In this document: positions 3,481-48,017 of the stretch, piece after piece | Layout of the letters: the number at the start of each line of letters is the position of its first letter | Position numbering within the stretch: the stretch's first letter is position 1 | From: Candidatus Omnitrophota bacterium | GTDB taxonomy: Bacteria; Omnitrophota; Gorgyraeia; Gorgyraeales; Gorgyraeaceae | Direction: 5' to 3' | Assembly: GCA_043821705.1 (NCBI GenBank) | Contig: JBDRCN010000001.1 | Location: 74,133-138,132, forward strand | DNA: 64,000 nt | Made by a program: the position numbers and the translations under genes | Notes under the pieces: model-generated | The model's database searches: none | Told to the model about the DNA's origin: nothing | Seen by the model: the letters and a program-made list of their open reading frames with translations, nothing else

Positions 3481-3484
3481 TATT

Positions 3485-3741
3485 AGCTCTATGAGCAGCT
3501 CACTATCTCATATGAAAATTTTCCTAATTCATCTGACAGCCTGGCAGGCCTTCGAAAAATCGTTCAGCCCAGTGTTAGTAATGCGTGGGTGTGGGGCTTC
3601 ACTCCACTTTATTTTGACAGGCAAACTAAATTGTAGTTTGTAGATCACAAAGTGCGCAAAATAAAAAGGTTTTTCTCCTGCCTACCAGGCTGTCAGTAAG
3701 ACAGAAATTTTCAAATTCGCTAGTAAGCTGCTCATAGAGCT
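3485..3741. repeat. Long imperfect inverted repeat (element C) in the carA-carB spacer
   Basis: Three nested arm pairs were found. AGCTCTATGAGCAGCT at 3485-3500 pairs with AGCTGCTCATAGAGCT at 3726-3741. CTGACAGCCTGGCAGG at 3533-3548 pairs with CCTGCCTACCAGGCTGTCAG at 3677-3696. GAAAATTTTC also occurs on both arms. The loop is ~130 nt and contains TGGGTGTGGGG, which is also found in element D. Confidence 0.7.
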
Positions 3742-3776
3742 GATTTAGCTACAAAGTTTAGCTATGCTGATGAAAA

Positions 3777-3962
3777 AGCTAGACTAGGGCTCTTTAGCGC
3801 ATTAGGAACATAGCGGCATTCAGTGGTATTTAAGCATGAAGTGTTCAAGGCTTTAGAGCGAGATCGAGCCTAACTAAAGGCGAAAGCTGTATTCGGAGAG
3901 CGAGCTCTAAACCGTAGAACACGGCGCGGTGTTCCAGCGCTAAAGAGTTCTAGTCTAGCTTT
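3777..3962 (+). repeat. Dispersed palindromic repeat family A, copy 1 (~185 bp)
   Basis: About 85% identical to 29577-29762 (same orientation) and to 47748-47924 (reverse complement). The terminal stem CTTTAGCGC/GCGCTAAAG and the internal hairpin GAACACGGCGCGGTGTTC are conserved. Confidence 0.85.
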
Positions 3963-3994
3963 AGCAACTGTTATAGTAACGATAGAAAGTTGAT

Positions 3995-15425: not shown

Positions 15426-18272
15426 GTGCCAAAGATAAAGGATATCAATAAAGTTTTGATAATAGGCTCTGGCCCGATCGTTATAGGCCAGGCATGTGAA
15501 TTTGATTATTCAGGTACTCAGGCTTGTAAAGCACTAAGGGCAGCTGGCTATGAAATAGTACTTGTCAATTCAAACCCAGCGACTATTATGACTGATCCAG
15601 GGATGGCAGATGTGACATACATCGAACCTCTTAATATAGAAAGACTTACCTCTATTATTGAAAAAGAAAGACCCGATGCGCTTTTACCTAATCTAGGCGG
15701 GCAGACAGGGCTTAATTTATCCAGTGAACTTGCTAAAAAAGGCGTACTTGAAAAATATAATGTAAGAATAATAGGCGTACAAGCTGATGCTATTGAAAGA
15801 GGAGAAGATCGCTTAGCATTTAAAGAAACAATGAAGTCTTTGGATATTCCTATGCCGACGAGTGAATTGGCATACTCTGTAGAAGAAGCTAAAGAGATAG
15901 CAAAGAAAATAGGATATCCTATTATTATCAGGCCTGCATATACTATGGGAGGAACAGGCGGAGGAGCAGTATATAATGAGGAAGAATTAGAAGTAATTGC
16001 CGCGAGAGGCATTTCAGTAAGTCTTATTGGACAGATATTGGTCGAACAATCTGTTCTAGGATGGGAAGAATTAGAGCTTGAGGTAGTTAGAGACAGGGAT
16101 TCTAATAAGATCACGGTCTGTTTTATTGAAAATATCGATCCTATGGGCGTACACACAGGAGATAGTTTTTGTTCAGCGCCTATGCTTACAGTAGACCCTA
16201 AAATACAGAAAAAACTCCAGGATTATTCTTACAAGATAGTGGATGCAATAGGTGTTATTGGCGGGACGAATGTCCAATTTGCGCATAATCCTGACAATCA
16301 TGATATTGTTGTCATCGAGATCAACCCTAGGACATCCCGTTCTTCAGCTCTTGCATCAAAAGCCACAGGATTTCCTATTGCTTATGTCTCTTCTAGGCTT
16401 GCAGGAGGAGATCTATTAAGAGATATACCTTACTGGAGGGATGGGACCTTAGATAAATATACTCCTTCAGGAGAATATGTTGTTATTAAATTTTCAAGAT
16501 GGGCATTTGAAAAATTCCGCAATATAGAGGATAAGCTTGGTACTCAGATGAGAGCAGTGGGTGAAGTTATGAGCATAGGCAAGACCTATAAAGAAGCGTT
16601 TCAAAAGGCAATAAGGAGCCTTGAGATAACTCGCTATGGGCTGGGTTTTGCCAAGAATTTCAATCAACTATCATTAGAAGAACTTAAAAAACTTTTAGCG
16701 CATCCTTCTTCAGAGAGACAGTTTATTATGTACGAAGCACTTCGTAAAGGCATGAGCGTGGATGAGCTGTATGATAAGACCAGGATACATAGATATTTCA
16801 TTACCCAGATGAAGGAACTAGTAGAGCTCGAAGAGAAGATCTTGAAACATAAATGGAAGGATCTTCCAGATGAACTCTTTATAAGGGCAAAGGAAGATGG
16901 GTTTTCAGATAAATATATTGCACAACTATTAAAGGCGCCTGAAGAAGAAGTCAGATCAAAACGCCTTAAGCTCGGGAAAGAAGAAGCATGGGAAGCTGTT
17001 CCAGTGAGTGGAGCAGATGCAGCGTATTACTACTCTACTTATAATGCGCCTGATAGTGTAAAGGTGAGCTCTAATCCACAAAAGATCATGATATTAGGCG
17101 GTGGGCCAAATAGGATAGGACAGGGTATAGAGTTTGATTACTGTTGCTGTCATGCAGCATACGCATTGAGAGACATGCAGTATGAAAGCATAATGATAAA
17201 TTGCAATCCTGAGACAGTATCTACTGATTACGATACATCAAATAAACTTTATTTTGAACCTTTGACAGTAGAGGATGTCTTGAGTATCTATAATAAAGAA
17301 AAACCGTTAGGAGCGATCGTCCAATTCGGGGGCCAGACTCCTTTAAATCTAGCAAAAGAATTAGAAAAAGCAGGCGTAAAGATACTTGGTACTTCCACTG
17401 AAAGCATAGATCTGGCTGAAGATAGAGAGAGATTTAGCAAAGAGATGAAAAAGCTTGGGATACTCCAGCCAGAAAGTGATATGGCAAGTACTGTAGAACA
17501 AGCGCTGAAGATAGCAAGCAAGATAGGCTACCCTCTTATCGTAAGGCCTAGTTATGTATTAGGTGGCAGGGCAATGGAGATAGTCTATGATGAAAATATG
17601 CTCCTTGATTATGTAAAAAAGGCAGTGGATGTTTCTCCGGATCGCCCGATCTTGATAGATAAGTTCTTAGAGGATGCATTAGAGGCTGAAGCTGATGCTA
17701 TTTCAGACGGAGAAGAGGTTTTTATACCTTCGGTGATGCAACATATAGAAGAAGCAGGAGTCCACTCAGGGGATTCAGCATGTGTGATCCCACCTACTTC
17801 CATACCTAAGAAGCATCTGGATACGATCAATGATTATACTGAAAAGATCGCAAAGGCATTAAAGGTAGTAGGCTTAATGAATATACAATATGCTATTGCA
17901 AATGATCTAGTATATGTGCTCGAAGCAAATCCCAGAGCATCCCGTACTGTCCCTATTGTTTCAAAGGTATGCGGTTTATCAATGGCAAGGATCGCAACAG
18001 AACTCATGCTCGGTAAAAAACTAAAAGATATGAAGTTAAAGAAGAAGAAATATTCCCATTACGGCGTGAAAGAATCAGTATTTCCTTTTTATATGTTCCA
18101 AGAAGTAGACCCTCTTTTAGGGCCTGAGATGCGTTCAACAGGTGAAGTCTTAGGCATAGCTGATTCTATGGGCCTAGCATATTTTAAAGCTCAAGAAGCT
18201 GCAGGAGCAAAGCTTCCTACGAGCGGTACAGTTTTGGTAACAGTTGCTGCAAGGATAAGAAAAAAACAATAG
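15426..18272 (+). CDS. second carbamoyl-phosphate synthase large-subunit paralog (no adjacent small subunit); reading frame breaks near the 3' end
   Basis: 948 aa with a full CarB architecture ([26 protein letters not shown] ... both ATP-grasp halves). It is ~55% identical to carB at 3995. The ORF ends in RKKQ* at an A7 run, and the CarB C-terminal MGS-like domain continues in another frame (see next feature). Confidence 0.85.
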   Translation: MPKIKDINKVLIIGSGPIVIGQACEFDYSGTQACKALRAAGYEIVLVNSNPATIMTDPGMADVTYIEPLNIERLTSIIEKERPDALLPNLGGQTGLNLSSELAKKGVLEKYNVRIIGVQADAIERGEDRLAFKETMKSLDIPMPTSELAYSVEEAKEIAKKIGYPIIIRPAYTMGGTGGGAVYNEEELEVIAARGISVSLIGQILVEQSVLGWEELELEVVRDRDSNKITVCFIENIDPMGVHTGDSFCSAPMLTVDPKIQKKLQDYSYKIVDAIGVIGGTNVQFAHNPDNHDIVVIEINPRTSRSSALASKATGFPIAYVSSRLAGGDLLRDIPYWRDGTLDKYTPSGEYVVIKFSRWAFEKFRNIEDKLGTQMRAVGEVMSIGKTYKEAFQKAIRSLEITRYGLGFAKNFNQLSLEELKKLLAHPSSERQFIMYEALRKGMSVDELYDKTRIHRYFITQMKELVELEEKILKHKWKDLPDELFIRAKEDGFSDKYIAQLLKAPEEEVRSKRLKLGKEEAWEAVPVSGADAAYYYSTYNAPDSVKVSSNPQKIMILGGGPNRIGQGIEFDYCCCHAAYALRDMQYESIMINCNPETVSTDYDTSNKLYFEPLTVEDVLSIYNKEKPLGAIVQFGGQTPLNLAKELEKAGVKILGTSTESIDLAEDRERFSKEMKKLGILQPESDMASTVEQALKIASKIGYPLIVRPSYVLGGRAMEIVYDENMLLDYVKKAVDVSPDRPILIDKFLEDALEAEADAISDGEEVFIPSVMQHIEEAGVHSGDSACVIPPTSIPKKHLDTINDYTEKIAKALKVVGLMNIQYAIANDLVYVLEANPRASRTVPIVSKVCGLSMARIATELMLGKKLKDMKLKKKKYSHYGVKESVFPFYMFQEVDPLLGPEMRSTGEVLGIADSMGLAYFKAQEAAGAKLPTSGTVLVTVAARIRKKQ

Positions 18273-18628
18273 TCGAAGCAGTTAAAAGACTAAAGGAACT
18301 TGGTTTTAAGATTGTAGCTACATCTGGCACAAAAGCTTTTTTAGATAAGAATAAGATCGTATGTGAAGAGATAAAAAAGATGCACGAAGGCAGGCCGAAT
18401 ATAGTAGATTCAATAAATAATAAAGAGATACAGCTTATAATAAATACGCCAGTTGGAAAAACTGCAGCACATGATGATTCTTATATTAGAAAAAGTGCGA
18501 TAAAGTATAAATTGCCTTATATCACCACTCCAGCAGCAGCATTAGCAGCAGCAGAAGGTATAGCTTCATATATTAAAAATAAAGGGGATGTTAAGTCTCT
18601 ACAGAAGTATCACAGCGAGATAACATAA
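18251..18628 (+). CDS. C-terminal MGS-like domain of the carB paralog, in -1 frame relative to 15426..18272
   Basis: The phase-2 translation KDKKKTIVEAVKRLKELGFKIVATSGT...GKTAAHDDSYIRKSAIKYKLPYITT aligns with carB1 residues [27 protein letters not shown]...PCITT. The six-frame track only reports the ORF from the internal Met at 18380. Confidence 0.75.
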   Translation, partial: KDKKKTIVEAVKRLKELGFKIVATSGTKAFLDKNKIVCEEIKKMHEGRPNIVDSINNKEIQLIINTPVGKTAAHDDSYIRKSAIKYKLPYITTPAAALAAAEGIASYIKNKGDVKSLQKYHSEIT

Positions 18629-22989: not shown

Positions 22990-23093
22990 TTAATTAGCAT
23001 CGGGTCCTGTCCGCCGATTCACCCCACAAGTGCTTGGCATTTGCCTGCGCGCTTGCGGGGGCCCCAATCGCCGGCCACCCGTTGCTAATTAGT
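22990..23093 (+). repeat. Palindromic repeat family B, copy 1 (~100 bp, GC-rich)
   Basis: Matches 29424-29515. The outer stem is AGCA(A/T)CGGGT/ACCCGTTGCT. The inner stem is CCG..GATT/AATC..CGG, with compensatory differences between the two copies. Confidence 0.8.
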
Positions 23094-23233
23094 AATTTTT
23101 TTAGATTTTCCCAGGGAGACAGAAAAACAGCGATGAAAGCTAACAGGTTACTTTTAATCTGGTTAGAAATGCCAGGACGCTGATATTATCTTGAATTGAC
23201 TCTATATAATATATCTGCTATTATGATATTCCT

Positions 23234-29356: not shown

Positions 29357-29423
29357 AATGATAACAGATAAGCTCTATTCAGTAAAGCTAAATTGGAGGC
29401 CTGCTTCCTCGCCATGTTTTCAA

Positions 29424-29515
29424 GTAGCAACGGGTCCTGTCCGAGATTCACCCCACAAGTGCTCGCAAAACGCTGCGCGCTTGCGGGGACCCCAATCTCG
29501 GCCACCCGTTGCTAT
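29424..29515 (+). repeat. Palindromic repeat family B, copy 2
   Basis: Same architecture as 22990-23093. The perfect 10-bp outer stem AGCAACGGGT/ACCCGTTGCT is present. Confidence 0.8.
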
Positions 29516-29576
29516 TCAGCAAAACAAGCCAAGCCATCCGCTAATAGCTTTAATAATTGTAAACTATTCTAACCAA

Positions 29577-29762
29577 AGCTAGGCTAGGGTTCTTTAGTGC
29601 ATCAGAAACATAGCGGCATCCCGTAGTATTTTAGCACGAGGTGTTCAAGGTTTTAGAGCGAGATCGAATCTATCTAAAGGCGAAAGCGCGATTTGGAGAA
29701 CGAGCTCTAAACCGTAGAACACGGCGCGGTGTTTCAGCACTAAAGACACTAGACTAGCTTTA
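29577..29762 (+). repeat. Repeat family A, copy 2
   Basis: Aligns end to end with 3777-3962. The terminal stem carries the compensatory pair TAGTGC/GCACTA versus TAGCGC/GCGCTA in copy 1. Confidence 0.85.
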
Positions 29763-29831
29763 GGTTAGTGTAACTGCAATCATTCATAATCAGTAGACAA
29801 AGAGGATGTGGCATGATATTATATTAGGCCT

Positions 29832-38565: not shown

Positions 38566-38655
<90 letters not shown>

Positions 38656-38740
38656 ATCCTTCGCCTTTCACGAAGGGTAAAATCGAACGTCTGGCTACGG
38701 ATGGCAGGCCAGTATTGGATCCAGCATATAAGGAGCAGAA

Positions 38741-41543: not shown

Positions 41544-42236
41544 ATGAAACTATCTATAATAATACCTGTCTACAATGAAGCTAACACTTTAGATGATGTG
41601 ATAGCTAAAATAAAAAATGTTAAACTGGAAGATAATATAATAAAAGAGATTATAATTGTCAATGACGGCTCAACAGATGAGACCTACGATGTTCTAAGTG
41701 GATACGATAAAGACCCTCTGATAAGGACATACCATAAGAAGAAAAACTCAGGAAAAAGCGAAGCAGTAAGGATAGGGATAGAACATTCAGAAGGAGATAT
41801 CTTGTTGATCCAGGATGCTGATCTCGAGTATGATCCTATAAATTACTCTAAACTTATAGAACCTATCATAAAAAATAAGACAAAGGTTGTTTATGGCTCT
41901 CGCTTTAAAGGCTCTATCGAGAACATGAGGCTTGTAAATAGGATCTCAAATATTATATCAAATGTGACGCTAAGGCTACTATACAGAACCCATATAACTG
42001 ATGTTAACACATGTTATAAAGCCTTTAGAAGAGAAGTATTTAAAGATATCTCTATTGATTCAAAAAGATTTATGATGGAGACAGAGATCACGGGTAAACT
42101 TCTTAAAGCAGGTTATGATATACAAGAAGTCCCTATTAGCTATAGAGCGCGCTCAAAAAAAGAGGGTAAAAAGATCACATGGTTCGGGGCTCTACAGATG
42201 TACGGGGGTATAATAAAGTATAGATTTTTTGGTTGA
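41544..42236 (+). CDS. GT2-family polyprenyl-phosphate glycosyltransferase (Dpm1/GtrB-like), soluble form
   Basis: IIIPVYNE ... NDGSTDET ... QDADLEYDP motifs. 230 aa with no TM segment. Start codon abuts the pgi stop. Confidence 0.8.
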   Translation: MKLSIIIPVYNEANTLDDVIAKIKNVKLEDNIIKEIIIVNDGSTDETYDVLSGYDKDPLIRTYHKKKNSGKSEAVRIGIEHSEGDILLIQDADLEYDPINYSKLIEPIIKNKTKVVYGSRFKGSIENMRLVNRISNIISNVTLRLLYRTHITDVNTCYKAFRREVFKDISIDSKRFMMETEITGKLLKAGYDIQEVPISYRARSKKEGKKITWFGALQMYGGIIKYRFFG

Positions 42237-44370
42237 TAGAGACTACACTGTCTCAAAAAAACTTTCTATGTCAGAAAAAAAGATATCAGTAATAATACCA
42301 TTCTATAATTCCCAAGCCACATTGAAAGATTGCCTGGATAGCTTTTTCAAGAACTCATATAAAAATTTTGAAGTCATACTGGTAAATGATTGCTCTGATG
42401 ATGGATCTTTAAGTATTGCTAGGTCATACGAATGTAAAGTCATTGATCTTTTAGAAAGAAGAGGTCCAGCTTATGCTAGAGATAGAGGCTTATCTTTGGC
42501 AGAAGGAGAAGTAGTAGCTTTTTTAGATTCTGATTGTATCCCCCCAAAAGATTGGCTTATCAAGATAAGCTCAAAACTTACTAAAGATATTGTAGGGTTA
42601 GGTGGGCGATACGAATTCCCGCGGAATACTAATAAAATAGGGGACCTTTTTATGACTTATTGGGACCCAAAGAATATTTTTTATAAAGATCCACGAAAAT
42701 TAGTATCTCTCTCAGGGGGAAACTGTGCTTTTTGGAAGTCGCATCTATTAAAAGAAAGACCTAAAAGAGAGCTTGTGCATTGTAATAAAAGAGTGGGTGG
42801 CGATGACACCATAATGTGTTATGAACTTAGGGATCTTGGAAAGATAGTCTACGACCCAGATATTTTCGTTATACACAATAAAAAGCCTTCGCTTATAAAT
42901 ATATTCAAAGAAACTATTAAATTAGGTTATAGCGGAGCCACTGTTACAGCTATATGTGGAGTTTCTTTAATAAAAGAGCCTCATAGATTTTATAAAACTC
43001 TTACATATTTGACCTCTCTTGCTATAGTATCTTCATTAGTGGGCTCATTTTTTAATAGGAGATCGGGATCATTTCTGTTCTTTTTATTTTTTTATATAAT
43101 AATACAGAGTCCTTTTATATTTTTATTGTTTAAGAAATTTTCAAGGTCATGGATTGTCTTATTATACCCTCTTGTAACATTATTTTCTGATTTACTTAAT
43201 TTAATTGGTAATATAAAAAGAACCTTAGACGAAACCAAAAAAGTTATGGATTCTTTTTTATGGAATATTAAATTAGTGATAAATGCAATAAACTCATCGT
43301 CTTTGACAAAGATTTTTTTATTTGTAACAAAAAAATGCAATGCAAATTGTTATTTCTGCTTTAATAAGATCGAGGGAGTTTCACAGGCAGAAAAGGAGCT
43401 GTCCTTAAAAAATATTATAGACATTACATCTAAGATACATTTTTTACCACTTTTAACTATAACAGGAGGAGAACCATTTTTAAGAAATGACATATATGAG
43501 ATAAGTAAAGCTTTTTATACTAATTGTAATACAAGAAATATAACTATAGTTACTAATGGCGCTTTAGTCAATAGAATAGAAGAGGTAGTAGAAAAGCTTT
43601 TAATCGATTGCAGAGGTCTATATTTAACCATTATAGTTGCGCTAGATAACATATCTGAAAAACATGATTCTATAAAAGGTTTAAAGGGGTCTTATGAAAA
43701 AGCAATAACTACTCTTGAAAGATTAAGTTCTTTAAATTTTAGATTTCCAAAATTAACTCCTGGAATAAACACAACTATAATTAAAGAAAATTCCAGTGAT
43801 ATAGAAGAGATCTTAGATTATTTTAGTAGCAATATTAAGTATGGAAGACAATATCTGAATATCTTAAGACAGGAACCGTGCAGCATCGCAGAGCCTGAAC
43901 ATATCTCTATCGAGAGATATGTCAGTCTCATAAAAGATAGAACAATCCAGAAAAATACTAATTCTACCATAACATGTCGGATAAAAAAGGCATTTAATAA
44001 ATCAATAGTAGAAACTTTTTCTAACAGAGCGCTCAAAGAGTTTAAAGAAAAAAGAGGGATTAGCAATTGCCTAGCTGCTAGAAAATTTTTTGTTATAGAT
44101 AATGATACAAATGTTTATCCTTGTGAGCTATTACGCAATAAGATAGGTAATCTTGAAGAAGAAGGGTATGATCTTAACAAGATAATAGCTAGTATTAAAG
44201 CAAAAGAGGTTAGATCAAAAATTTATTCTTCACATTGTTATTGTAGATGGCCTTGTGCTGTTGCATTTAATGGATACTTTGACATTTCTGTATATCCGAG
44301 TATTATCTCTAGAGCACTTTCCATATTAAAAGACGGTAGATATGATAAAAAAACTAATAGACAAATATAA
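42229..44370 (+). CDS. fusion protein: N-terminal GT2 glycosyltransferase + transmembrane segment + radical SAM (CX3CX2C) + SPASM/twitch cysteine-rich C-domain
   Basis: GT2 motifs VIIPFYNS, NDCSDDGS and LDSDC (residues ~1-250). A hydrophobic block spans ~250-320. The radical-SAM cluster motif KKCNANCYFC and the SAM-binding TGGEPFL are present. The C-terminal cysteines CLAARKFFVIDNDTNVYPC ... HCYCRWPCAV are typical of SPASM/twitch domains. Confidence 0.75.
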   Translation: MVDRDYTVSKKLSMSEKKISVIIPFYNSQATLKDCLDSFFKNSYKNFEVILVNDCSDDGSLSIARSYECKVIDLLERRGPAYARDRGLSLAEGEVVAFLDSDCIPPKDWLIKISSKLTKDIVGLGGRYEFPRNTNKIGDLFMTYWDPKNIFYKDPRKLVSLSGGNCAFWKSHLLKERPKRELVHCNKRVGGDDTIMCYELRDLGKIVYDPDIFVIHNKKPSLINIFKETIKLGYSGATVTAICGVSLIKEPHRFYKTLTYLTSLAIVSSLVGSFFNRRSGSFLFFLFFYIIIQSPFIFLLFKKFSRSWIVLLYPLVTLFSDLLNLIGNIKRTLDETKKVMDSFLWNIKLVINAINSSSLTKIFLFVTKKCNANCYFCFNKIEGVSQAEKELSLKNIIDITSKIHFLPLLTITGGEPFLRNDIYEISKAFYTNCNTRNITIVTNGALVNRIEEVVEKLLIDCRGLYLTIIVALDNISEKHDSIKGLKGSYEKAITTLERLSSLNFRFPKLTPGINTTIIKENSSDIEEILDYFSSNIKYGRQYLNILRQEPCSIAEPEHISIERYVSLIKDRTIQKNTNSTITCRIKKAFNKSIVETFSNRALKEFKEKRGISNCLAARKFFVIDNDTNVYPCELLRNKIGNLEEEGYDLNKIIASIKAKEVRSKIYSSHCYCRWPCAVAFNGYFDISVYPSIISRALSILKDGRYDKKTNRQI

Positions 44371-46096
44371 GCTACACATTCTTTTTTTGATTGTATTGAT
44401 ATTTGCTTCCATGAATATTAGGGATGGAGCGGATTTTGGTCGTTATGTAGAATGGAGCGATGTTGCTATTACGTCTAATATTTTTCATCTTGAAAACGAT
44501 GTTCAGTCTCCAATAGGAGTGCCTGTATCTAGTTGGTTCCCAGGCACAGGATTTATACTTGCGATAGGAAAATTACTGTTTAGGACAAAAACACCATTTT
44601 TATATAACATACACCCAATTGGAATGGTTGGTATGGCATATCTTTGGTTATTGTTTTCTTCTATTCTAGGTTTATTTATAAAACCAGAAGAAGGTTCGAA
44701 GTTTCTTTTCTTTTCTGCCATAGCTTTTTTTGCTACTCATATGGGCTATTATTCCTTAGCCCATAGTACAGAGTTTTTTTCTTATATATGTTTAGTAACC
44801 ATTATATATTGGGTCTTAAGGCCTAGGTCTTGGAAGACAATAGATGTCCTTCTTGTAGGAGCAGCTAGTGGGATTTTAATTTTAATTAGGCTCCCATTTT
44901 TTATTTTTACACTTATTCCTTTAAGCATAATGTGTTATTTTATAGCACAAGAGAAAGAAAAAACGAGTTTTGCCTACAAAAGTATTCGTATAATTTTACC
45001 TTTGTTAATGATAGCTTTAGCTATAGTTTATTCACTAATAGTATGGCATTGGATGACAGGTTCTTGGTTTGTTTCTCCTTGGATGTTTAAAGATGGTTTA
45101 TTCAAAAGTTTTGATTGGTCTCAACCCAAATTTTGGGTCCTTCTTATGCATCCTTGGCATGGCCTACTTACATATCATCCTTTTTATTTATTAGGTTTTA
45201 TAGCAGTTATAACCCAATTTTTTAAAGCTAAAAATAGAAAAATTAAATTTTTATATGGCGCGTTAATAATAGTTTTATTTCTATATATCTATTCTACAGC
45301 TTCCTATTTCTGTTTTTGGGCTGGTACAGGGACTTTTGGTTCTAGATATTTAGCAATTATAGCAATATTTTTAGTACTTATTACATTGATAAATATTGAG
45401 GACCAAAAAGAAAAGGATAGATTAAATGCTTGTTGGATCTTTCTGAGTACATGTTGTGCGCTTTGGTCTTATCTTTTGATGTTGAGATTCAATACACAGT
45501 TCTATACTTACTTTGAACTTTTAAATGCCCAACTGGAATATATCTTTGATCCAAAGATCATTATGCCTATGATTTTTATAGGACTTTCAACATTATTGTT
45601 AAGGAGGAAATTACTTAAAAATAACGAAGATAAAAAATTTGCTGTCGCAGGTATTTTTTTATTCTCGCTATGCATGTTTTATCTTATCATGAACGCTGTT
45701 TTTAGATATTTAAGATTCTTTCAGAAAGATTCAATAATTATAGAATCTATAGTTTTATTCATCTTACCGATATTCATCCCATTTTTAGTTAGTTCTTTAT
45801 GTAAAAAAAGATTTATAATCAAATTACCTTCCAGAACAGTAGAATCACTATTAATAGGTGTATTTCTTTTTGGTTACTTTTTTATTTCATTTTTATTTAT
45901 TAAGTTAGTGATCAATACAGAAAAACATATTGCAAAAGATACATTTAGTAGTCGTAGTTTCAAATATAGATCTAGTTTTAATCTGACAGAATTAGAAGGA
46001 ACTTATATTGAATTTTTAAAGGTTCCCGGGTTTGAAGAAGAAAAAAAATCGCTTTATCAGTTTTTAGAGAGACAAAAAGATATATCTAAGTTATGA
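44342..46096 (+). CDS. polytopic (~14 TM) membrane protein, putative GT-C-fold lipid-linked-sugar glycosyltransferase (tentative)
   Basis: 584 aa, very hydrophobic. The first extracytoplasmic loop carries the acidic motif RDGADFGRYVEW, reminiscent of the DE.RY/DE.HF motifs of ArnT/PMT-type GT-C enzymes. It overlaps the upstream gene by 29 nt, which suggests translational coupling. Confidence 0.35.
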   Translation: MIKKLIDKYKLHILFLIVLIFASMNIRDGADFGRYVEWSDVAITSNIFHLENDVQSPIGVPVSSWFPGTGFILAIGKLLFRTKTPFLYNIHPIGMVGMAYLWLLFSSILGLFIKPEEGSKFLFFSAIAFFATHMGYYSLAHSTEFFSYICLVTIIYWVLRPRSWKTIDVLLVGAASGILILIRLPFFIFTLIPLSIMCYFIAQEKEKTSFAYKSIRIILPLLMIALAIVYSLIVWHWMTGSWFVSPWMFKDGLFKSFDWSQPKFWVLLMHPWHGLLTYHPFYLLGFIAVITQFFKAKNRKIKFLYGALIIVLFLYIYSTASYFCFWAGTGTFGSRYLAIIAIFLVLITLINIEDQKEKDRLNACWIFLSTCCALWSYLLMLRFNTQFYTYFELLNAQLEYIFDPKIIMPMIFIGLSTLLLRRKLLKNNEDKKFAVAGIFLFSLCMFYLIMNAVFRYLRFFQKDSIIIESIVLFILPIFIPFLVSSLCKKRFIIKLPSRTVESLLIGVFLFGYFFISFLFIKLVINTEKHIAKDTFSSRSFKYRSSFNLTELEGTYIEFLKVPGFEEEKKSLYQFLERQKDISKL

Positions 46097-46118
46097 TTTT
46101 GTTCTTTATCAGTAATAC

Positions 46119-46169: not shown

Positions 46170-46259
46170 GGAGGAGTGGCAGAGCGGTTGAATGCGGCGG
46201 TCTTGAAAACCGTTATGGGCTTACGCTCATCGTGGGTTCGAATCCTACCTCCTCCGCCA
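46170..46259 (+). tRNA. tRNA-Ser (anticodon TGA), type II
   Basis: Acceptor GGAGGAG/CTCCTCC, anticodon stem GCGGT/ACCGT with loop CTTGAAA, T-loop TTCGAAT, discriminator G, encoded CCA. Confidence 0.85.
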
Positions 46260-46394
46260 TCCTACGTCTTTCACGAATGGTAAATAGAACGTCTGACTAC
46301 TGATGGCAGGCCATAATAGGATTCGAAGCGAACCTATCCTTTCGAACATACTTCTAATTGTCTAATCCGAGATAGTTTGGTATAATTTAATGAT

Positions 46395-46784: not shown

Positions 46785-47737
46785 TACAGAAATTTGCTGA
46801 TTTTTTAGTGTATTCAGTCCTTAAGCTTAACCCTGAAACAAGAATAGGAGAGTCTATAAACTTTTTCATCTATGATTCCATAAAGATACTTTTACTATTA
46901 TTTTTCATGATAGCTATTATAGGATTTTTCAGGACTTATATGCCTCAGGAAAAAGTAAAGAAGTGGGTATCTGGAAAAGGGATCCTGGGAAATCTTATAG
47001 CAGCTATTTTTGGCTCTGTGACACCGTTCTGTTCATGTTCTTCGATCCCGATATTCTTCGGTTTTCTCGAGGCTGGCATACCCCTAGGTATAACTTTTTC
47101 ATTCCTAATAACTTCTCCTTTGATCAATGAATATCTAGTGGTTTTAATGCTAGGGTTTTTTGGATGGAAGATAACAGTTCTTTATGTATTGAGCGGCATA
47201 TTGATAGGTGTGGTTTCTGGAGCAATACTCGGGAAAATGAAACTAGAACGCTATATTGTAAAAGATCTAGTTTCTAAAGGACCAGCATCTTGCGGTTGTA
47301 AGACATATAATACAATTAAACAACGAGTGATCTTTGGTATTAATGAGGCAGTATCTATTGTTAAAAAAGTCTGGATATGGGTACTTGTAGGAGTAGGCAT
47401 AGGATCAGTTATCCATAATTACATACCTCAAGAAACAATACATTCTATTATCAGCAAGACTGGTATTTTCTCAGTTCCAATAGCAGCTATCCTAGGTGTG
47501 CCAATGTATGGAAATTGTGCTGCAATAGTACCTATAGCAGTAGTGCTTTTTCGTAAAGGCATTCCTCTGGGGACAGCACTTACCTTCATGATGGCAACAG
47601 TAGCTTTAAGTTTTCCCGAGGCAGTAATACTTAAGAGGACAATGAAATTAAAGCTCGTTATAATCTTCTTCACAGTAACTACACTCGCAATTATCATCAC
47701 AGGCTACATCTTCAACTTCCTGCAATATATAATGTAA
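46781..47737 (+). CDS. DUF318/YraQ-family permease, ArsP-like organoarsenical efflux permease
   Basis: Eight TM helices with the TPFCSCSSIP vicinal-cysteine motif in a TM helix. It overlaps the arsC stop. Confidence 0.65.
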   Translation: MIQKFADFLVYSVLKLNPETRIGESINFFIYDSIKILLLLFFMIAIIGFFRTYMPQEKVKKWVSGKGILGNLIAAIFGSVTPFCSCSSIPIFFGFLEAGIPLGITFSFLITSPLINEYLVVLMLGFFGWKITVLYVLSGILIGVVSGAILGKMKLERYIVKDLVSKGPASCGCKTYNTIKQRVIFGINEAVSIVKKVWIWVLVGVGIGSVIHNYIPQETIHSIISKTGIFSVPIAAILGVPMYGNCAAIVPIAVVLFRKGIPLGTALTFMMATVALSFPEAVILKRTMKLKLVIIFFTVTTLAIIITGYIFNFLQYIM

Positions 47738-47747
47738 CCTAACCCTA

Positions 47748-47924: not shown

Positions 47925-48017
47925 TTTGGTTATAGCGTAATTCTAACCTGGTTAGAAATGGCAGATTAGCAGCGGATGGCTTGGCTTACCCCTAGAAGCA
48001 TCTTGAAAGTTCGAGCG

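Follow-up and report, generated by a model that had tools for sequence, protein, structure and literature searches.

The haloarchaeal SMR-A elements of Haloquadratum walsbyi (HqIRS42/43/55) possess inverted terminal repeats, show no target duplication and insert into palindromes, and the enzyme that mobilises them is unknown; they are ~110 bp long and target the palindromes of IS605-type elements and of palindrome-associated transposable elements (PATEs) (PMC3119063). Among bacterial MITEs (miniature transposable elements with inverted repeats), Correia/NEMIS, ERIC, RUP, Chunjie and Nezha are shorter than 200 bp, non-coding and bounded by terminal inverted repeats, and long-hairpin MITEs lie between genes in either orientation, fold as a very stable stem-loop and can be co-transcribed inside operons (PMC3184786). 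Here we describe a repeat, named family A, which was found in three copies in a 64,000-nt stretch of contig JBDRCN010000001.1 of a Candidatus Omnitrophota bacterium (the whole stretch is called the window below). We consider that family A is probably a small non-coding, non-autonomous mobile fold-back DNA element, which is MITE-like in the broad sense and in its behaviour nearest to SMR-A. Like the MITEs named above it is below 200 bp, non-coding, intergenic, present in both orientations and able to form a very stable stem-loop between terminal inverted repeats. Like SMR-A it is short and non-coding, with inverted terminal repeats, no evident target duplication and ends unrelated to known transposons, and it appears to insert into palindromes belonging to other small repeats. 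It differs from SMR-A in being 188 bp long and bacterial, and in its target, which is TAACC/AGGTTA (the slash marks the insertion point) in an unclassified short repeat for two of the three copies. Classical MITEs have direct target duplications and ends matching known insertion sequences (IS), neither of which is evident in family A. The core of family A is better conserved than its ends. The likeness to SMR-A is one of described behaviour, not of sequence, and homology across domains to HqIRS42/43/55 is not expected.

A sequence-only reading of the window had proposed three intergenic copies, ~85% identical to one another and richer in GC than the genome. Sequence comparison and a covariance model built on the three copies (R1) bore out the number of copies in the 64-kb window, the intergenic position of all three and their composition (46–51% G+C versus 37.4% for the window). 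The single identity figure resolved into pairwise values of 86.2, 86.7 and 81.3%, and the proposed coordinates differed from those found here by 2 nt in copies 1 and 2; in copy 3 they differed by 7 nt at one end and by 3 nt at the other. With the best ends from R1 taken as boundaries, the copies are as follows.

3775–3962, plus strand: family A copy 1, 188 nt, in the carA-carB spacer; R1 score 218 bits
29575–29761, plus strand: family A copy 2, 187 nt, in a spacer flanked by two divergent genes, one for a GFO/IDH oxidoreductase (minus strand) and one for an msbA-like ABC transporter (plus strand); R1 score 212 bits
47741–47927, minus strand: family A copy 3, 187 nt, in the spacer between an ArsP-type permease gene (plus strand) and a transglutaminase-like gene (plus strand); R1 score 224 bits

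Each copy is a discrete unit, 5'-AAAGC...GCTTT-3', in which imperfect terminal inverted repeats of ~26 bp surround a conserved core. A 32-nt stretch, GAGCTCTAAACCGTAGAACACGGCGCGGTGTT, is identical across all three copies. Core 16- and 20-mers occurred exactly three times in the window (0.00–0.01 expected from shuffles), and no further full or partial copy was detected by the R1 scan. All six reading frames are interrupted by stops and the longest open stretch is at most 40 codons, so that coding capacity is absent and an embedded small open reading frame (ORF) was ruled out; the length of 187–188 nt (MITEs are below ~400 bp) and the lack of coding capacity are those of a MITE. The conservation of the unit was found to be a mosaic: between copies 1 and 3 the arms are 65% identical, the core 93% and helices P2/P3 100%, while copies 1 and 2 are ~85% identical throughout. 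The hexamer CTTTAG/CTAAAG was observed about six times per element, and CTAG four times in copies 1 and 2 versus 0.6 expected. Furthermore, the inner helix TTTAGAGC/GCTCTAAA is similar to the outer TTTAGCGC/GCGCTAAA, and family A may have arisen when a smaller palindrome was nested within a related one.

The flanks of copies 2 and 3 gave information on how the element may have arrived. The features concerned are the following.

29567–29574, plus strand: left half TTCTAACC of the short palindrome that copy 2 interrupts, with AGGTTAG at 29762–29768 as its right half
47941–47957, minus strand: uninterrupted 17-nt palindrome TTCTAACCAGGTTAGAA, 13 nt from copy 3
47928–47932, minus strand: TAACC half-site left of copy 3; its partner AGGTTA, at 47735–47740, holds the permease stop codon

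Copy 2 (AAAGC...GCTTT) lies between ...ATTCTAACC and AGGTTAGTG..., and when it was excised in silico the joined flanks restored the palindrome TTCTAACCAGGTTAG. The same 15-mer is intact at 47943–47957, and a diverged copy of the 17-nt palindrome together with its flank is present at 23148–23175. It was found that the copy 2 site minus the element aligns seamlessly with both of these repeats, at 47941–47957 and 23148–23175. The palindrome at 47941–47957 could be regarded either as a paralogous 'empty site' for copy 2, or as an excision or internal-deletion remnant. Comparison of the filled site of copy 2 with the uninterrupted paralogous sites pointed to a target duplication of 0–1 nt, a value drawn from one comparison plus the flanks of copy 3. 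The boundary between filled and empty site coincides with the point at which the resemblance of copy 1 to the other two copies ends, and therefore the unit is discrete. Copy 3 (AAACC...GGGTT) lies between ...TATAACC and AGGTTACAT... and splits TAACC/AGGTTA in the same manner. In total, two of the three copies split TAACC/AGGTTA exactly at its centre, and this palindrome is part of a short repeat found at three loci, which is the habit described for SMR-A of entering the palindromes of other repeats. Only two unoccupied TAACCWGGTTA-like sites exist in the 64 kb. As read from the sequence, these sites suggest most simply that the element enters a short palindrome at its centre and duplicates 0–1 nt of the target, and a target duplication is probably absent.

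The short repeat that carries the target palindrome, TGSCATTTCTAACCAGRTTARAA, was located at 47941–47965 (minus strand), at 23148–23175 (minus strand) and, interrupted by copy 2, at 29560–29574 plus 29762–29775 (plus strand). An exact 17-mer, AAGCCAAGCCATCCGCT, precedes two of these repeats, at 29526–29542 (plus strand) and 47971–47987 (minus strand), where 0.12 occurrences with at most three mismatches were expected. Complementarity between the core of family A and the target palindrome was looked for as well, and it was limited to a 5-nt CTAAC match that is missing from copy 2; this candidate was rejected.

The same flanks could be read as those of a classical DDE-type MITE of the IS630/Tc1-mariner kind, with ends ACCAAAGC...GCTTTAGGT and a duplicated target TA (TA/ACC...GGT/TA), in which case the palindrome TTC-TA-ACC-A-GGT-TA-GAA would mark a former TTCTAGAA site, either as the footprint of an excision or as a copy with an internal deletion. 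Copies 2 and 3 have TA on both sides and ACC/GGT just inside, and once the element and one TA are taken out, the copy 2 site becomes ATTCTAGTG; this includes CTAG, a favoured IS630 target. Also in keeping with this assignment, ERIC-type MITEs have TA at both termini (PMC3184786), and the excision of Stowaway/mariner elements leaves the duplication and a few end bases (PMC4561436). Nevertheless, the TA/TA duplication suits copies 2 and 3 and not copy 1, which has the best-preserved arms and possesses neither ACC/GGT nor TA. TA is its own reverse complement, so a direct repeat is indistinguishable here from an inverted one. The flanks of the short palindrome are homologous at three loci, which a footprint in unique DNA would not give, and an IS630-like transposase is absent from the window. 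We therefore regard a DDE-type MITE as unlikely, if the least unlikely of the alternatives considered here.

Comparison with related genomes indicated that two of the three spacers are filled in the window and empty in relatives. The best protein hits assign the window to an uncultured Candidatus Omnitrophota genome. The carA protein of the window is identical to NCBI MFH1782067.1, and the nearest relatives share 79–80% protein identity with the window. The carA and carB genes overlap in four relatives (L004–L007) and are 110 bp apart in a fifth (L003), versus 515 bp here. The order lpxB, GFO/IDH, divergent msbA, rpsB is conserved in two relatives (L031 and L032), in which the GFO/IDH-msbA divergent spacer measures 35–60 bp versus 475 bp in the window. 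Copy 2 was found inside an extra block of ~415 bp (29376–29791) that lies between conserved flanks and is absent from the spacers of L031 and L032; the promoter-like −35/−10 site of msbA is kept downstream of this block. In sum, where relatives keep the gene order, at two of the three loci, their spacers are short and lack the element, a dispersion of sites as in MITEs. For copy 3 no orthologous empty site was found in the relatives, where the gene order around the permease is not conserved.

Within the sensitivity of the scans used, family A itself was not detected outside the window in the collections searched. No homologue was found by covariance model, nhmmer or blastn in 113 kb from at least eight related Omnitrophota contigs. 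With the filters off, R1 matched two fold-backs of L031 at 14–18 bits on both strands, which were judged to be generic long hairpins since nhmmer and blastn showed no similarity. The 20-mer GTAGAACACGGCGCGGTGTT had two matches among genome contigs (a collection without the genome of the window), in coding-like DNA of a Proteobacteria metagenome-assembled genome (MAG) and of a Flavobacteriales MAG, and both were attributed to chance. Scans of metagenomes with a 24-mer, and with a 21-mer from another conserved block, gave no match, and blastn in its 'distant' mode found no family A match in plasmids and phages. A 17-mer (plus one degenerate base) and a 16-mer yielded 22 loci in viral contigs, none of which fitted the covariance model.

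The second line of evidence comes from the arms, whose fold in copy 1 is given below.

3775–3800, plus strand: terminal inverted repeat, 5' arm AAAGCTAGACTAGGGCTCTTTAGCGC; pairs with 3937–3962
3937–3962, plus strand: terminal inverted repeat, 3' arm GCGCTAAAGAGTTCTAGTCTAGCTTT; partner of 3775–3800
3805–3935, plus strand: conserved core, with helices P2/P3, helices P4/P5 and a variable apex

Each copy folds as one long rod. Helix 1, the terminal one, is formed by the 26-nt arms and contains 24 pairs, with 95.8% of cells paired, as expected of the terminal inverted repeats of a MITE. It is followed by helix P2/P3 (GGAACAT.GCG / CGC.GTGTTCC), an asymmetric 25-nt bulge, and helices P4/P5 (GTGTTC..GG.TTTAGAGC / GCTCTAAA.CC...GAACAC) below the variable apex. 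In helices 2, 4 and 5 pairing is complete (100%), and all but one of the 27 pairs are unvarying; in the small apical helices three pairs are broken in one copy.

In the three-copy alignment with its consensus structure, seven pairs were found in which both partners had changed and still pair. Shuffling of the columns gave 2.7 ± 1.2 such pairs (none of 500 reached seven), and 0–2 were obtained when the partners were slid by 1–3 columns. The terminal helix holds six of these pairs, among them one transversion pair from G-C to C-G, and the seventh is in the second helix, where G32-C160 becomes A-U in copy 2. Five compensated pairs separate copies 1 and 3. The stem variants from which paired changes had originally been suspected (CTTTAGCGC/GCGCTAAAG, CTTTAGTGC/GCACTAAAG and CTTTGGCGC/GCGCCAAAG) are all present, and there are more paired changes than those three quotations listed. 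The internal hairpin GAACACGGCGCGGTGTTC, which had been called invariant, is so in the other copies; in copy 2 it reads GAACACGGCGCGGTGTTT, with a C-to-T change. This change is matched by a G-to-A change at alignment column 32, and therefore the base pairs at long range (32–160), not just locally.

Because the complementarity of the arms is kept far above chance, the repeat is not simply decaying, and to this extent the earlier argument against neutral decay stands. It does not follow that an RNA fold is selected, because the terminal inverted repeats, which make up the two outermost helices, hold all seven double changes. At such termini matched changes are also expected from one transposase that reads both ends, from a hairpin in a single-stranded DNA intermediate, or from arm-to-arm templated repair of a quasi-palindrome. 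Helices 4 and 5 are uninformative because they never vary; the evidence is that the ends are kept complementary, and the interior says nothing either way. Of the two options that had been offered, a structured RNA or a MITE whose hairpin is itself functional, the latter comes close to the mobile element favoured here. Compensatory changes are not confined to RNA genes: bcr1 repeats of the Bacillus cereus group carry them, and a long stem-loop is a classic MITE feature (PMC3184786). Similar to family A, bcr1 is ~155–190 bp long and its locations are not conserved between relatives; it differs in having 5-bp direct repeats, in being transcribed and in forming a cruciform of two independent stem-loops, while family A, which is known from sequence, forms one rod and shows no evident duplication. 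If family A is indeed a mobile element, it cautions against counting paired substitutions within terminal inverted repeats as evidence for an RNA gene.

The possibility that the copies are structured non-coding RNA genes or cis-acting RNA elements, with a conserved core closed by a long stem that is free to vary as long as it stays paired, was weighed against the folding energies and the genomic context. In its favour, the closing helices covary, and conservation is higher in the core than in the stem that closes it. For copy 1 (3775–3964) the minimum free energy (MFE) as RNA was −87.5 kcal/mol, with z-scores against shuffles of −8.5 for the forward and −7.4 for the reverse strand. For 3775–3962 the MFE was −86.8 on the forward versus −72.7 kcal/mol on the reverse strand. 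The forward strand was the steadier one in all three copies, by 14.1, 7.9 and 12.7 kcal/mol, and the alifold energies were −75.1 versus −62.6. The firm helices contain four G-U positions and no A-C. Copy 1 precedes a start codon by 33 nt and copy 2 by 71 nt, both on the coding strand. Against this, the arms also contain G-A and A-G mismatches, which are not wobble pairs, and copy 1 as single-stranded DNA folds with equal significance (MFE of −50.7 kcal/mol, z of −8.8). The inner helices show no covariation, and three apical pairs are broken. The strand asymmetry is the sole hint of strand specificity, and a weak one because the copies share ancestry.

The context of the copies was likewise difficult to reconcile with an RNA gene. 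Copy 1 has the same orientation as carA and carB, and it is carB whose ATG it precedes. Copy 2 lies between divergent genes, between two divergent promoter-like sites and upstream of the conserved msbA promoter-like site; judged from these consensus promoter matches, it is probably outside both neighbouring transcripts. Copy 3 is antisense to both of its neighbours and begins 3 nt past the TAA stop of the permease, whose C-terminus is intact and of full length. The three loci hold unrelated housekeeping genes with no common function, with copies in both orientations. No promoter-like or terminator-like site common to the copies was found in their flanks. At the gathering score Rfam 15 reported three tRNAs in the window and no family A match, and at E ≤ 10 around copy 1 there were sub-threshold snoRNA-type chance matches only. 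Relatives lack the element at two of its three sites, and the homologue search described above was negative. A hammerhead-like CUGAUGA beside copy 1 was set aside, as the flanks of the other copies do not contain it and it has no Rfam support. An outward promoter in the 3' arm that would feed carB or msbA was dismissed because the hexamers were unconvincing. No RNA-specific feature was found for family A. A role as a structured RNA is kept alive by the conserved core and the asymmetric folding of the strands, and we hold it to be slightly less likely than the DDE-type MITE.

The fold also bears on a REPIN-like or IS200/IS605-related element, moved as single-stranded DNA by an HUH (Y1) transposase. 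Here the left arm would form the hairpin GGAACAT...GTGTTC and the right arm GTAG-GAACAC-GGCGCG-GTGTTC, and the element could change between a 'clover' of these two hairpins and the single long one. Both folds are permitted by four segments that are complementary to one another (columns 31–37, 67–72, 143–148 and 155–161), and no target duplication is evident. The right-hand hairpin is preceded by GTAG, which we take to resemble a REP head. REPINs, which are non-autonomous, hairpin-forming doublets, carry compensatory changes and adopt the same two alternative folds, as does family A by its possible pairings (PMC3116915). They are, however, ~70–110 nt long, RAYT-linked and present in hundreds of copies, with conserved ends and a variable spacer, the reverse of family A. 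No solitary copy of the hairpin was found in the window, even with up to three mismatches, and GTAG is not mirrored in the left arm. There are three copies, not hundreds, and no RAYT or TnpA gene was found in the window. An IS200/IS605-derived PATE is contradicted by the 26-nt terminal inverted repeats of family A, for PATEs are by definition without terminal inverted repeats and have subterminal palindromes only (PMC3119063). We judge a REPIN-like or IS200/IS605-related element to be the least probable of the three main alternatives. An integron attC site was also rejected, as the copies are dispersed and not arrayed, and by eye their flanks gave a poor fit to the R''/R' consensus.

We thus return to the small mobile fold-back element with ends like a MITE and behaviour like SMR-A. 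According to this model, a transposase or recombinase encoded elsewhere in the genome, outside the window, would copy family A into intergenic DNA, and the element would land in the centre of the short palindrome TAACC/AGGTTA without target duplication, as the flanks suggest in two of the three cases. Matched ends would be needed for movement, either to form a hairpin in a single-stranded or cruciform intermediate or to supply two copies of one protein-binding site; it is proposed that the paired substitutions arise because mobilisation requires complementary ends. Copy 1 would be co-transcribed in sense with carA and carB and would place a ~60-bp rod in the mRNA as a side effect only. Such elements appear to move in this lineage, because a neighbouring fold-back, described below, recurs at different loci in a related genome.

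Several observations weigh against this model. No transposase, integrase or reverse transcriptase was found among the ~50 ORFs of the window that were scanned, and no partner element with the same ends (AAAGCTAGRCTAGGG...CCCTAGYCTAGCTTT, by which the partner gene would be recognised) was found in the window. There are three copies only. The flanks of copy 1, GATGAA/AAAGC...GCTTT/AGCAAC, are without TAACC/AGGTTA. The nearest relative available for the comparison of empty sites has only 79–80% protein identity. The better conservation of the core than of the ends (93–100% versus 65% between copies 1 and 3) is the reverse of the usual MITE pattern and suits a functional core, and the forward fold, better by 8–14 kcal/mol in all copies, could reflect a constraint at the RNA level.

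The last two points could be accommodated if family A were the bacterial member of an uncharacterised class of fold-back elements that insert at palindrome centres without duplication and in which the selected part is the ~100-nt core. The core might then be a structured RNA or single-stranded DNA module that serves the element's movement, much as IS110- and IS605-type elements have guide or bridge RNAs, and the closing stem would only have to stay paired. This is compatible with the mosaic pattern, the strand-asymmetric folding energy and the palindromic target. We consider it improbable, ranking below a structured RNA and a little above a REPIN-like element.

Other fold-back repeats were observed in the window and in its relatives. 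Directly upstream of copy 1 lies a nested fold-back of 263 nt at 3482–3744 (z of −10.4). Its inner unit, 3533–3696, consists of a terminator-like hairpin with a T-run followed by TTGACAGGCAAACTAAATTGTAG, and sits at the centre of an outer palindrome (3482–3521 / 3705–3744). The inner unit is ~80% identical to two different spacers of the related genome GCA_043814965.1, whose carA identity is 79% (L031:2858-3009 and L031:7718-7841), and it partly matches the carA-carB spacer of the same related genome (L003:11081-11164). It is a repeat family found across genomes, here called family C, and may be a terminator/promoter cassette or a small RNA. The related genome has a fold-back of its own, ~190 nt long, in two inverted copies (L031:7444-7641 and ~L031:3020-3215), each of which adjoins a family C unit; this is the fold-back that R1 matched at 14–18 bits, with no sequence similarity to family A. 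The fold-back repeats of this lineage tend to nest in palindromes. A second, G+C-rich fold-back family of ~95 nt is present in the window at 22990–23092 and 29423–29516, with z of −6 to −7 on either strand; the latter copy is ~58 nt upstream of copy 2 of family A, within the same inserted block.

Three further features of the window were noted. The tRNA-Ser genes with anticodons GGA and TGA (38631–38720 and 46234–46322) have in common, just downstream, a stretch of ~65 nt that is 85% identical and whose folding does not exceed that of shuffled sequence. This may be a former attachment site, or a region for processing or termination common to both genes. The window also has a second carB-like gene in two pieces, one of 948 aa (15426–18272) and one of 82 aa with an MGS domain (18380–18628), separated apparently by a frameshift at an A7 run (18262–18268), while the orthologue in L006 is intact (1079 aa). 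The split is either a homopolymer assembly error or the mark of a pseudogene. The stretch at ~42000–46100 is low in G+C (30–31% versus 37%) and encodes a 713-aa fusion of glycosyltransferase-2 and radical-SAM-SPASM together with a 584-aa ORF without Pfam match; it may have been horizontally acquired.

If family A is the mobile element that we propose, it would be one more lineage-specific family of small mobile repeats, marking recent insertions in the poorly sampled Omnitrophota, and it would account for unusually long spacers in otherwise tight operons such as carA-carB. The less ordinary feature is the apparent insertion at the centre of a palindrome without duplication, as in haloarchaeal SMR-A, and a bacterial counterpart for which the complete genome is to hand could help to find the enzyme responsible.

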